Shown here piece after piece: positions 27,001 to 30,000 of a stretch of 64,000 bases of DNA. Position numbers: made by a program. This DNA is from Candidatus Bathyarchaeota archaeon. GTDB lineage: Archaea > Thermoproteota > Bathyarchaeia > TCS64. Numbering within the stretch: the first letter of the stretch is position 1; the number at the start of each line of letters is the position of its first letter. The DNA is taken from the NCBI GenBank assembly GCA_963771885.1, contig CAVYVF010000022.1, positions 256,001 to 320,000 on the forward strand. The letters run 5' to 3'.

Positions 27001-30000
27001 TTACTACGGTATGTGGAGCCGATTTGAGGGCGCCGTCGCGGAGGCGATGGACGAGGTCCCCGGGATGCGCGTCGCGATGGAGCCGAAGCCCTACGAGCCC
27101 CGTGGTAACAATATCTATAGGAACACTGCGAACGGCCTCCTCTTCGCGAGGAATGTCGAGGCGCTACTCAAGCACAGGGAGAACGTGAAGCTGCTTAAGG
27201 ATGGGCACGCGATGGTCGGCCTCAACCCGGAGGTAGGCCACGTGCTGATGGGGCATGAGGATCTCCCCGGTGCATTCGCCTCGGTGCTCCGTGAGGGGCG
27301 CCTTGCTCACAGCCACTGGAACAGCCAGCCCCTAGGCAACTACGACCAGGACCTGAACGCTGGCGTCCTCGGAATTGACCAGATGCTCTCCACGCTCCTC
27401 GTCTTCAAGATGTACGCCTATGCGGGCTTCTACGGCATCGATATCAATCCCGAGAGGATGCCCGTTGAGAAGGCAATTACGCTGAACTTGAACGCGTTAA
27501 ACGCGGGGGCCGAGGTTGTTAATGGGCTCGACTATGATTCCCTTGTCCCCGCGATATACGACCCGGCGGGGCATAGGGGAGTCATCGAGGAGACACTCAC
27601 AAAGGCGTGGGCACCGAAGGGAACCAAGCTGAGAAAGCTTTCCTAACCTCGTTACTGCTTAAATAAGAGGCTCAATCAATAATCGACGAAAGCCGTTGAG
27701 GGTCGCCGTAGTCGACAAGGAGAAGTGCAAGCCCGACAAGTGTGACGAGGTCTGCGTCAGGTTCTGCCCCATGGTGAGAACGCGCCGCGAGGCGATCCGA
27801 ATGGGAGACGACGGGAAGGCCTACGTCGCCGAGATGATATGCAGCGGCTGCGGCATCTGCGTGAAGAAGTGCCCATTCGACGCTCTCCGCATAGTCAACC
27901 TCCCCGACGAGTTGAAGACCGACCACACACACCGCTTTGGTCCCAACGCCTTCACTCTCTACAGGCTCCCCACGCTCAAGCAGGGGAGCGTCGTCGGCCT
28001 CCTCGGACGCAACGGCATAGGAAAGTCAACGATCCTACGCATCCTGAGCGGGGAGATGGTGCCGAACCTCGGTAAATACATGGAGCCGCCGATGAGGGAG
28101 GAGGTCAAGGAGAACTACGCGGGAAGGCCCATGTACGACTACCTAGATGCCCTCTACGGAGGGCGCATGCAGGTGGTACACAAACCCCAGTACGTCGATA
28201 AGATACCCAAGGTCGTTAAAGGTACAGTCGGCGAGGTCCTGAAGAGGCTGGACCAGCGCGGCTTGGCTGCGCAGGTCGCTAAGGACCTTGAGCTGGAGCA
28301 TCTGATGGACAGGACGCTCGATGTCCTCTCGGGTGGCGAACTACAACGCGTAGCGATCGCCACAGCCGTTCTGCGGGACGCCAAGGTCTATCTCTTCGAC
28401 GAGCCGAGCAGCCACCTCGACATCTACCAGCGCACAAAGGCGGCGCGCGTAATCAGGAGCCTCGTGGACGCGGATAAAATGGTCGTCGCCGCCGAGCACG
28501 ACCTCGCCGTCCTAGACTACATGAGCGACGATGTCTTCCTCCTTTACGGAGAACCCGATGTCTACGGCATAGTCAGCAAGATCCACAGCGTCCGCGAGGG
28601 CATCAACATCTACATAAACGGCTACATCCCCGACGAGAACATCCGCTTCAGGGAGCACCCGATAATCTTCCACGACAAGCCGCCGAACCCCGAGAGGAAG
28701 GGATCGCGCCCGCTCCTGCAGTGGACGGAGCTGAAGAAGCGCTACGGCGGCTTCAGCCTCGACGTGGAGGCAGGGAAGATTGGCGTCGGCGACGTCGTTG
28801 GCATCCTCGGCATGAACGGCATCGGAAAGACCACATTCATCAAGATGCTCGCAGGCGTCGAGAAACCCGATGAAGGCGCAGTAACCAACCCGACCCTCAG
28901 GGTGAGCTACAAGCCCCAGTACATAAGCCAGCAGAGCGTCGAGGGTACAGTAGAGCAGGTCCTACGCAAGGCGGCAGGCGATAAGTACGGTGAGCAGTGG
29001 TTCACCGCCGAAGTCGTCGAGCCGCTACACGTCAGGAGGATGCTTGAGAGGGACGTCAAGGTGCTCTCCGGCGGCGAGCTACAGCGCCTCGCCATCGCGG
29101 AGTGCCTCAGCAGGGACGCCGACATCTACCTACTCGACGAGCCTTCGGCATACCTCGACGTCGAAGAACGCCTCGCCGTGGCACGCGCCATACGCCGCAT
29201 CACAAAGATGCGCGGCGTCACAGCCTTCGTCGTCGAGCACGACATAGTCACTCAGGACTTCATCGCGGACAAGCTCATGGTCTTCACCGGCGAGGCGGGA
29301 AAAAGCGGCCACGCAGGTCAGCCGCTCAGCCTCGAGGACGGCATGAACGCCTTCCTAGAGCAGATGGGTGTCACCTTCCGCCGCGACGCCGACACGAAGA
29401 GACCCCGCGTCAACAAACCAGGTAGCAGGCTCGACAAGGAGCAGAAGGAGTCGGGCAACTACTACTACACGAGCTAGACCTCGCCGAGGATCAGTGCGAT
29501 CACCGCGACGAAGACGCCGGCAACCACCATCTGCAGTCCCGCTACTACGGCTCGCTTCTCACTTAATCTTCCAAGGAAAACGCCCAAGACGAATAATACG
29601 AGGAGGCTCGCCCCGATGCTCACGTAGAACGCGAGCTGGATCGGCATGAGGCCGAGCATCGTGAGGGCAAAGGGGATTATGCAGGGGAGGGAGGCGAGGA
29701 AGGGCGCCGAGCCGTCTATAACCGCGGCGAAGACAGAGACGAAGCGGGATGCCCGGCCGTACATTGTCGCACCCATGTCGATCAGCATCGCGTCCTCGAG
29801 CTCGTTCAGGCTCCTCGCCCTCTCGGCGCTCTCCGTCATGTAGGTGCCAGAGAAGCCAGAGACCGCCATGGCGACTCCGCTCATCAGTATGACGTTTATG
29901 ACGATGTGAGGGTCGCTTAACGCAGCGATATAACTGCCGATTACGACGCCGAGACTGGTCATCGCGCCGTCAAAGGCGTTCATAACGAAGTAGCGGCGGA

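Follow-up and report, generated by a model that had tools for sequence, protein, structure and literature searches.

In eukaryotic ribosome quality control (RQC), splitting by Dom34 (Pelota), Hbs1 and ABCE1 is followed by the action of NEMF/Rqc2 on the 60S–peptidyl-tRNA. An aeRF1-like hibernation factor of bacteria, Balon, fills the A site without releasing peptides. Archaea share the same three protein families with eukaryotic RQC, whose sequence of steps predicts that Pelota and NFACT should be kept or lost together, as they are here; Archaea differ in having neither Listerin nor Hbs1, and in the lineages described here the module is absent. In bacterial RqcH–RqcP alanine tailing, as far as the sources covered describe it, the NFACT family likewise acts on split large subunits, but splitting there proceeds without Pelota, which makes the system uninformative on an archaeal coupling. 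In the covered passages of their classification, Burroughs and Aravind (2019, PMC6514570) divide the aeRF1 superfamily into two basic clades, Dom34 and aeRF1, assign domain-loss variants to other clades and only Dom34 proteins to the Dom34-like clade, and state that Pelota is present in all archaeal lineages; neither Pelota-less lineages nor a two-domain Dom34-like paralogue appear in those passages. A literature search, mostly at title and abstract level, returned no report of the Pelota, NFACT and ABCE1 losses described below, nor any experimental test in Archaea of whether NFACT acts downstream of Pelota.

Here we describe a 64,000-nucleotide stretch of DNA (the window) from a Candidatus Bathyarchaeota archaeon, together with the genome from which it comes (G000; labels in f, g and G are the family, genus and genome codes of the genome collection). 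The completeness of G000 is 92.24% and its contamination 6.66%; it seems to carry 1-nt frameshifts, one of them in aRF1 near C23:861027.

ABCE1 in the window

The window encodes ABCE1, the homologue of RNase L inhibitor/Rli1 (Table 1), with matches to Pfam Fer4_RLI (E = 1.2e-10), Fer4 and two copies of ABC_tran (E = 3.5e-43). Eight cysteines (residues 11, 16, 20, 24, 49, 52, 55 and 59) are predicted to serve two 4Fe–4S clusters, and both ABC domains carry a Walker A, a signature and a Walker B motif. With the G000 protein as query, full-length orthologues (E ≤ 1e-100) were recovered from 179 of 201 genomes of the class, and orthologues found in this way passed NCBIfam NF009945 (cut-off, 469 bits; for example, 828.8 bits in G216). 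The initial annotation had assigned this ORF to ABCE1, an assignment borne out by the Pfam domains, the cysteines and both sets of ABC motifs; judged by its sequence, the protein is an ordinary, intact ribosome-recycling ATPase.

Table 1. Features in the window (positions of the window) and elsewhere in G000 (contig:positions)
Feature	Position	Strand	Description
ABCE1 (RNase L inhibitor/Rli1 homologue)	27696..29477	+	593-aa ORF, TTG start, intact
ABCE1 N-terminal Fe–S domain, residues 1–65	27696..27890	+	Fer4_RLI residues 1–31, Fer4 residues 46–65
ABCE1 nucleotide-binding domain 1	27972..28409	+	best ABC_tran stretch, residues 93–238
ABCE1 domain 1 motifs	Walker A 28005–28031, signature 28326–28349, Walker B 28392–28409	+	motif location
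ABCE1 nucleotide-binding domain 2, core	28809..29147	+	second ABC_tran stretch
ABCE1 domain 2 motifs	Walker A 28809–28835, signature 29064–29087, Walker B 29130–29147	+	motif location
Flank genes of the Pelota locus	C23:86179–86871, C23:86885–88237	+, −	7 nt between stop codons; synteny with relatives
Short Dom34-like paralogue	C23:321135–321818		~228 aa, two domains

Absence of NFACT and three-domain Pelota

The NFACT-R_1 profile (PF05670), which matched 10 of the 14 genomes used as controls, all 4 archaea among them, had no match in G000 at E ≤ 10. PF05833 gave only two sub-threshold matches (20.2 and 19.6 bits; cut-off, 31), one in a 359-aa Fpg/Nei-like ORF and the other in a 503-aa ORF that we take to be Top6B; both lie on the H2TH region of these other proteins and were rejected as NFACT. 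A full-length profile built from six Bathyarchaeial NFACTs found nothing among the 22,677 six-frame ORFs of at least 50 aa, even with relaxed filters (best E = 1.8). The order of G000, called TCS64 in the initial annotation, was sampled with 79 genomes, including the single-contig G011 and G021 and the 6-contig G072, and was searched for the NFACT-R_1 domain: none of the 79 matched, nor did any of the 23 with a completeness of 90% or more and a contamination of 5% or less. No deletion scar was found for NFACT, whose neighbours in family f13 map to separate contigs of G000 (C23 and C2) and so offer no single locus to compare.

The sole G000 match to the Pelota model TIGR00111 was aRF1 (58.2 bits; cut-off, 177.65), and N-domain and profile searches found no separate piece of the Pelota N-domain. 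Across the order, 0 of 79 genomes exceeded the cut-off, the top score (89.2 bits) again being aRF1. Relatives in family f28 (L024 and L025) have the gene order NTP_transf_2-domain gene (+), Pelota (−), Toprim/DnaG (−), and the first two are convergent neighbours also in L020 (f29) and L021 (f11). In G000 the syntenic locus, on a contig of 1 Mb, is empty and both flank genes abut (Table 1)—a deletion scar. The searches with PF05670, PF05833 and the Bathyarchaeial profile uphold the initial annotation in its claim that G000 lacks NFACT, and the two counts of 0/79 do the same for the claim that the whole order lacks both proteins. The further claim that Pelota has been lost holds for the three-domain protein, absent by TIGR00111 and from its locus, but G000 keeps a two-domain Dom34-like paralogue.

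Joint loss in separate lineages

Among 201 genomes sampled from the class, 108 had both genes, 83 had neither, 6 had NFACT only and 4 had Pelota only. The 83 were distributed over the order of G000 (52), family f26 outside genus g64 (29), f5 (1) and f7 (1). A sample of 79 genomes from the order of f26 reproduced the division of another Bathyarchaeial family that had been described initially: all 36 genomes of genera g49 (0/15), g85 (0/1), g59 (0/2) and g78 (0/18) lacked both genes, and the sister genus g64 had NFACT in 8/8 and Pelota in 7/8; in the other nine families of that order, each gene was found in 33 of 35 genomes. In family f60, which belongs to another class, both genomes (G377, 99% complete; G504, 93%) lacked NFACT-R_1 and showed only an aRF1-like match to the Pelota profile; G377 also lacked NFACT_N.

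Across a sample of the phylum, NFACT was present in 297 of 301 genomes and Pelota, at E ≤ 1e-30, in 280 of 301. Ten of the 21 Pelota misses were members of family f53, and the three of these that were re-tested all had a diverged full-length Pelota, missed because the threshold was too strict. Nowhere in the samples did a lineage represented by at least two genomes lack just one of the two genes. Single discordant genomes do occur. Besides those of the class sample (6 and 4), G353 (99% complete) has Pelota and neither NFACT domain, and G268 (99%) and G100 (97%) have NFACT and no Pelota at E ≤ 1e-30; a part of these discordant genomes may truly have lost one gene alone. Compared by eye, Pelota and NFACT were adjacent in none of the eight cases in the phylum in which they share a contig.

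The joint loss is real and has been repeated in at least three separate lineages (the order of G000 with its sister f7; g49, g59, g78 and g85 of f26; and f60), which replaces the earlier count of only two independent events. A tree of 44 ABCE1 sequences, from which family f5 was left out because no ABCE1 was found in its genome G079, placed f7 as sister to the order of G000 (SH-aLRT 95) and joined g64 and g78 in a clade (96) within the other order; the loss state requires three changes on this tree. In an AU test on ABCE1, a single clade of the order of G000, f7 and g78 was not rejected (p = 0.097), and the independence of the loss in f26 rests on the family and order codes together with the free tree.

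Could both genes be present in these genomes and simply be missed, through MAG incompleteness or divergence? The completeness and contamination of G000 and its apparent frameshifts leave room for such an artefact, and a too-strict threshold did hide the Pelotas of f53; against this, the absences hold for 0/79, 0/36 and 0/2 genomes of the three lineages, single-contig and 100%-complete ones among them, the searches covered all six frames and ran on across stop codons, lineage-specific profiles found nothing, and the scar at the Pelota locus is a contiguous deletion. We regard an artefact as extremely improbable.

A two-domain Dom34-like paralogue

The short paralogue is present in 53 of the 79 genomes of the order, G000 among them, and was not found in the other 26, including genus g11 (0/4, two of which are 94–96% complete) and families f2–f4 (0/8); no copy was found in f26 outside g64. 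Outside the order of G000, 43 genomes have a strong copy, and 42 of these also have full-length Pelota. It is an older paralogue.

The protein is homologous to Pelota/Dom34 rather than to aRF1. The best ten matches of its alignment profile to PDB sequences are all Pelota/Dom34 (best E = 8.3e-10), the top Foldseek matches of its AF2 model (mean pLDDT, 85) are Pelota and Dom34, and hhalign gave a probability of 97.0% against Pelota over 211 columns and 8.9% against aRF1. The model best matches structures of the archaeal Pelota–aEF1α–ABCE1 complex (PDB 3J15, 3WXM and 3OBY), from which the short paralogue differs in its missing N-terminal domain and its low identity to the chains (15–19%). It aligns to Pelota residues ~146–367, that is, the central and C-terminal domains; the protein begins at the central domain and has no N-terminal (eRF1_1/Sm-like) domain. 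An Arg-rich R-x2-RGYP motif at the N terminus and a C-terminal QLGG are conserved, and none of six aligned sequences contains a GGQ motif. Copies from the same genus reach 34–37 bits with TIGR00111 (cut-off, 177.65), a model that did not match the G000 copy at all, Pfam found nothing on the G072 copy, and relatives are labelled 'stalled ribosome rescue protein Dom34' by JGI. The neighbourhood is conserved only in close genera (an amidohydrolase, an unknown 393-aa gene and a MoxR-like AAA gene) and offers no functional hint. A predicted complex of the short paralogue with G000 aEF1α and GTP, run without controls, scored 0.00, which speaks neither for nor against an interaction.

The short paralogue may keep part of the role of Pelota, as a residual A-site or rescue function. 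Balon (PDB 8V9J and 8RDW), which shares the aeRF1 fold, is a possible functional model, although its Foldseek matches rank below those of Pelota (E = 4e-7 to 1e-4). In a stronger form, the paralogue would have taken over the job of Pelota in this order, so that only NFACT and the function of the Pelota N-domain were lost. Its clear placement on the Dom34 branch by PDB profile, Foldseek and hhalign, its conserved motifs, its retention in 53/79 genomes and the JGI label of its relatives all speak for such a takeover, which nonetheless seems doubtful to us: no copy was found in 26/79 genomes of the order (with all of g11 and f2–f4) or in f26 outside g64, the paralogue is an older one and occurs together with full-length Pelota in 42/43 outside genomes, it is without the domain with which Pelota probes the mRNA channel, and in G000 its gene has an additional base following codon 4 when compared with relatives 94% and 71% identical, an apparent frameshift near C23:321137–321150. 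The initial statement that whole lineages live without the pathway needs qualifying for the 53 genomes that keep a Dom34-like protein, and is better suited to g11, f2–f4 and f26 outside g64.

ABCE1 outside the order

The order of G000 and f60 keep ABCE1 and aRF1, whereas ABCE1 was not found in the f26 genera g49 and g59, nor in G079 (f5); the earlier description of ABCE1 as kept is accurate for G000, its order and f60, and fails for g49 and g59. As a marker of ABCE1, PF04068 was rejected: its matches in g49, g59 and G079 are confined to frames of 187–255 aa, one of which (G162, L043; 219 aa) looks like Tsr3, as we presume.

These absences bear on a rival reading of the joint loss, in which some third cause would have relaxed or rewired the surveillance of translation and the recycling of ribosomes more widely, with no direct dependency between Pelota and NFACT. 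Such a change would be in keeping with the lack of ABCE1 in g49 and g59, the long stem branch of g78 ABCE1 (0.47) and the missing short paralogue in f26 outside g64. It is nevertheless improbable, given that the genomes are not reduced (1.5–3.1 Mb in g78 and the genus of G000), that the order of G000 and f60 retain both ABCE1 and aRF1, and that the same gene pair coincides three times against the presence of NFACT in 297/301 genomes.

Discussion

The order of G000 and f7 have deleted three-domain Pelota and are without NFACT, and the same pair is gone from four f26 genera and f60; we consider it likely that the reason is a functional dependency between the two proteins. By analogy with eukaryotic Dom34–ABCE1 and the subsequent NEMF/Rqc2 step, Pelota, aEF1α and ABCE1 would split stalled ribosomes in Archaea, and NFACT would then act on the 50S–peptidyl-tRNA product of splitting. 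Once one step had gone, the other would be left without substrate or outlet and would also be lost. ABCE1 would be kept in G000 because, as we propose, it is also needed with aRF1 in ordinary post-termination recycling. The phylogenetic profile, with its three events, points to a Pelota–NFACT link, and the repeated co-loss against near-universal presence, together with the scar at the Pelota locus, fits the two proteins forming one functional unit. The earlier proposal of one pathway in Archaea gains from the co-loss in at least three lineages, although some single genomes are discordant and the genes are not neighbours.

To our knowledge, ABCE1 is considered essential in Archaea and eukaryotes and present in all of them. 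We see an evenly balanced case for some Bathyarchaeia being without the archaeo-eukaryotic axis of splitting and rescue in its entirety, with g49 and g59 lacking Pelota, NFACT, the short paralogue and ABCE1, and the order of G000 representing an intermediate stage. If this reading is true, g49 and g59 would have to recycle their ribosomes in some way not yet known, and the order of G000 would have kept ABCE1, with the two-domain Dom34-like protein as the sole Pelota-type factor left. Should the absence of ABCE1 from g49 and g59 hold, a dogma on the essential genes of archaeal translation would have to be revised.

An automatic Dom34 label on the two-domain family could hide the loss of Pelota in gene-content surveys. 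Joint loss on three independent occasions, with a scar in one case, is comparative evidence for archaeal NFACT acting downstream of Pelota, and the lineages concerned are natural 'knock-outs' for asking how stalled ribosomes are handled without the Pelota–NFACT pathway.

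Absence of NFACT and canonical Pelota

By its sequence, the gene under study is an ordinary, intact ABCE1, as the initial annotation had placed it: in the 593-aa ORF Pfam finds the hallmark domains Fer4_RLI (E 1.2e-10) and Fer4, with ABC_tran in two stretches (E 3.5e-43); eight cysteines lie near the N-terminus, and the Walker A, signature and Walker B motifs are all present twice. In the same genome (G000, where the window spans C22:256001-320000; 2,457,701 bases in 23 contigs, 92.24% complete, 6.66% contaminated), PF05670 (NFACT-R_1) was without a match at a threshold as loose as E<=10; the profile matched in 10/14 control genomes, including all four archaea. 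PF05833 (NFACT_N) gave two sub-threshold matches (20.2 and 19.6 bits; cut-off 31), both on H2TH regions of other proteins, one of a 359-aa Fpg/Nei-like ORF and the other of a 503-aa ORF that we take to be Top6B. Six full-length Bathyarchaeial NFACTs were made into a custom profile (681 positions), which reached a best E of only 1.8 against all 22,677 six-frame ORFs of at least 50 aa, so that the reported absence of NFACT is borne out by all three profiles.

TIGR00111 (pelota; cut-off 177.65 bits) matched a single place in G000, scoring 58.2 bits, and this match was rejected as aRF1 on the basis of Pfam (eRF1_2, 2.3e-31; eRF1_3, 5.1e-19). Searches with eRF1_1 and eRF1_2 returned nothing beyond the aRF1 gene, and a Bathyarchaeial Pelota profile detected no Pelota N-domain fragment. 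In relatives (loci L024 and L025, also L023), Pelota lies between a ~245-aa gene and a Toprim/DnaG gene; the ~245-aa gene is the convergent neighbour of Pelota in L020 and L021 too, and its G000 homologue has an NTP_transf_2 domain. The two flanking genes of G000 are convergent with stop codons 7 nt apart, and the site is internal to a contig of 1,015,078 bases, indicating that Pelota was deleted rather than missed in assembly. For NFACT, the G000 counterparts of the genes that adjoin it in family f13 lie on two separate contigs.

An apparent deletion of one base near 861027 breaks the sole aRF1 gene of G000 into two frames, and a further pair of ORFs corresponds to one 295–322-aa gene in a relative; the assembly probably contains indel errors.

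NFACT-R_1 and canonical Pelota are absent throughout the order (TCS64), as previously claimed. In its 79 genomes, which represent 4 families and 15 genera and were all searched, PF05670 matched 0/79 at E<=0.01 (0/23 when limited to genomes with completeness of 90% or more and contamination of 5% or less), and TIGR00111 exceeded its cut-off in 0/79, the top score of 89.2 bits falling on ~420-aa aRF1 frames.

Coordinates of the genes and loci discussed
Feature	Location	Strand
ABCE1, G000	window 27696-29477	+
Pelota-locus flank, ~245-aa gene homologue side, G000	C23:86179-86871	+
Pelota-locus flank, second gene, G000	C23:86885-88237	-
Short Dom34-like paralogue, G000	C23:321135-321818 (L013:5135-5818)	
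aRF1, G000	C23:860881-862127	
Two ORFs, one gene in a relative, G000	C23:969324-970201	
Short Dom34-like paralogue, G205	C7:137963-138687	
ABCE1–aRF1 locus, G377	C3:15289-19646 (ABCE1 15289-17073; aRF1 18798-19646)	same for both
Two full-length NFACT genes, G175	C17:45418 and 92941	
Tsr3-like frame (presumed), L043	G162:C64	
Weak NFACT-R_1 ORFs	G169:C35:1512-1718; G167:C6; G104:C23; G132:C64; G151:C22; G185:C59; G108:C6; G221:C17	

Recurrence of the joint loss

Among 201 genomes of the class, each at least 85% complete, 108 had both genes, 83 neither, six NFACT only and four Pelota only (a 20.7-bit match in G185 was counted as no NFACT). The double absences comprise 52 genomes of the own order, 29 of family f26 outside genus g64, and one each of f5 and f7; the ten discordant genomes are singletons, other members of their families having both genes. 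When 79 genomes of the order of f26 were searched, both genes were absent from 36/36 genomes of genera g49 (15), g85 (1), g59 (2) and g78 (18), and g64 retained NFACT in 8/8 and Pelota in 7/8, confirming a second family partly without the pair. The nine other families of that order scored 33/35 for each gene.

In a phylum sample of 301 genomes (each at least 90% complete), NFACT was found in 297, missing from G000, G007, G353 and G377, and Pelota in 280 at E<=1e-30. Family f53 accounts for ten of the 21 Pelota misses, and each of the three f53 genomes re-tested proved to encode a full-length but diverged Pelota (E 1.5e-25 to 2.7e-20). Both genomes of f60 (G377, 99% complete; G504, 93%) lacked NFACT, and their Pelota search gave aRF1 only. 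Family f60 is a third joint-loss lineage, in another class; the recurrence described in the initial annotation stands, but its count of two independent events was too low, and three coincident losses are set against near-universal presence.

On an ABCE1 tree of 44 sequences, f7 was sister to the own order (SH-aLRT 95), g64 and g78 formed a clade (SH-aLRT 96) inside the other order, and the loss state needed three changes. The g78 sequences have a long stem branch (0.47). A tree uniting the own order, f7 and g78 was not rejected by the AU test (p 0.097), and the independence of the f26 lineage therefore rests on family and order codes plus the free tree.

Several loci stood out besides. ABCE1 and aRF1 lie ~1.7 kb apart in G377, two NFACT genes share one contig in G175, and Pelota and ABCE1 each match twice in G174. 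Among eight compared cases in which NFACT and Pelota share a contig in this phylum, none had the two side by side. Weak NFACT-R_1 matches (18–30 bits) on ORFs of about 335–350 aa in f11, f17 and f27 represent a second, shorter NFACT-R-like protein, none of which was seen in the own order.

A two-domain Dom34-like protein

The order-wide TIGR00111 search gave second matches on ~230–295-aa frames, covering only profile positions ~135–348. The G000 copy of this short paralogue (tblastn E 2e-68 to that of G072) begins 2 nt past the stop codon of the amidohydrolase gene that precedes it. Six aligned copies share an N-terminal R-x2-RGYP and a C-terminal QLGG motif, all six lack GGQ, and Pfam detected no domain in the G072 copy. 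Against PDB sequences, the ten best profile hits were Pelota/Dom34 only (best E 8.3e-10 over Pelota 174–354); an AF2 model (pLDDT 85.1, pTM 0.79) was closest to Pelota and Dom34, followed by aRF1/eRF1 and Balon; and hhalign aligned residues 14–227 to Pelota 146–367 (211 columns, 97.0% probability, versus 8.9% for aRF1). Together these identify a Dom34-branch member of two domains, without the N-domain. The claim that Pelota was lost consequently holds for the canonical three-domain protein and its deleted locus, but not for this retained relative.

The short paralogue occurs in 53/79 order genomes (genera g1, g3, g9 and g12); the remaining 11 genera yielded no copy, g11 (0/4) and families f2–f4 (0/8) among them. 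Outside the order, 43 class-sample genomes have a strong copy (E<=1e-33), 42 of them alongside full-length Pelota; the paralogue predates the Pelota/NFACT loss. A search of 1.84 billion representatives gave 119 clusters for its family at E<=1e-10, and relatives are named 'stalled ribosome rescue protein Dom34' by JGI and 'hypothetical protein' by NCBI. Of the 80 genome loci, nearly all bear the title Bathyarchaeota or Bathyarchaeia; the few copies on MAG contigs labelled as another taxon (L119, L122, L136, L142, L162, L176, L178 and L184; such labels include Heimdallarchaeota, Promethearchaeota, Methanocella and some bacteria) could reflect mis-binning, naming differences or wider spread. Compared with relatives at 94% and 71% identity, the G000 copy carries an additional base following codon 4, a suspected assembly error given the similar frame break in its only aRF1. 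Three stop codons break the G205 copy.

ABCE1 in the joint-loss lineages

Using G000 ABCE1 as the query, 179/201 class genomes matched at E<=1e-100, with no match in any g49 or g59 genome of that sample. Re-testing with the same query at E<=1e-15, with every candidate scored, still did not find the gene in these genera. PF04068 (Fer4_RLI) matches were rejected, as they lie on frames of only 187–255 aa, so that Fer4_RLI alone is no marker of ABCE1; the one frame read among L042, L043 and L044–L046 (L043, 219 aa) is presumably Tsr3-like. NF009945 gave at best 71–80 bits, against 828.8 bits in G216 (g78). By protein query, PF04068 and NF009945, ABCE1 was not found in G117, G121, G128, G172 and G176 (g49), G134 and G162 (g59), G232 (g85) and G079 (f5); the re-testing, which also took in two more g49 genomes and g85, was negative throughout. 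Pelota and NFACT are likewise missing from these genomes. ABCE1 is present in sister genera g64 and g78, and f60 retains it (856 and 818 bits). The earlier statement that ABCE1 is kept is correct for G000, where the gene is intact, but does not extend to g49 and g59 of the second joint-loss family.

Implications

Burroughs and Aravind 2019 (PMC6514570) place both aeRF1 clades in all archaeal lineages and describe the Dom34-like clade as Dom34 proteins only. Going by literature listings, we found no report of the Pelota/NFACT losses described here. NFACT probably depends on Pelota for ribosome splitting, as it does in eukaryotes, so that both genes would be lost as a unit. ABCE1 would be kept in G000 because ordinary recycling with aRF1 still needs it, and the short paralogue may provide residual A-site function. 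The genome-level joint loss is real and reaches further than first proposed, but it is qualified by the short paralogue and by an ABCE1 that is not universal; the ABCE1-less Bathyarchaeia are the lead of higher interest.
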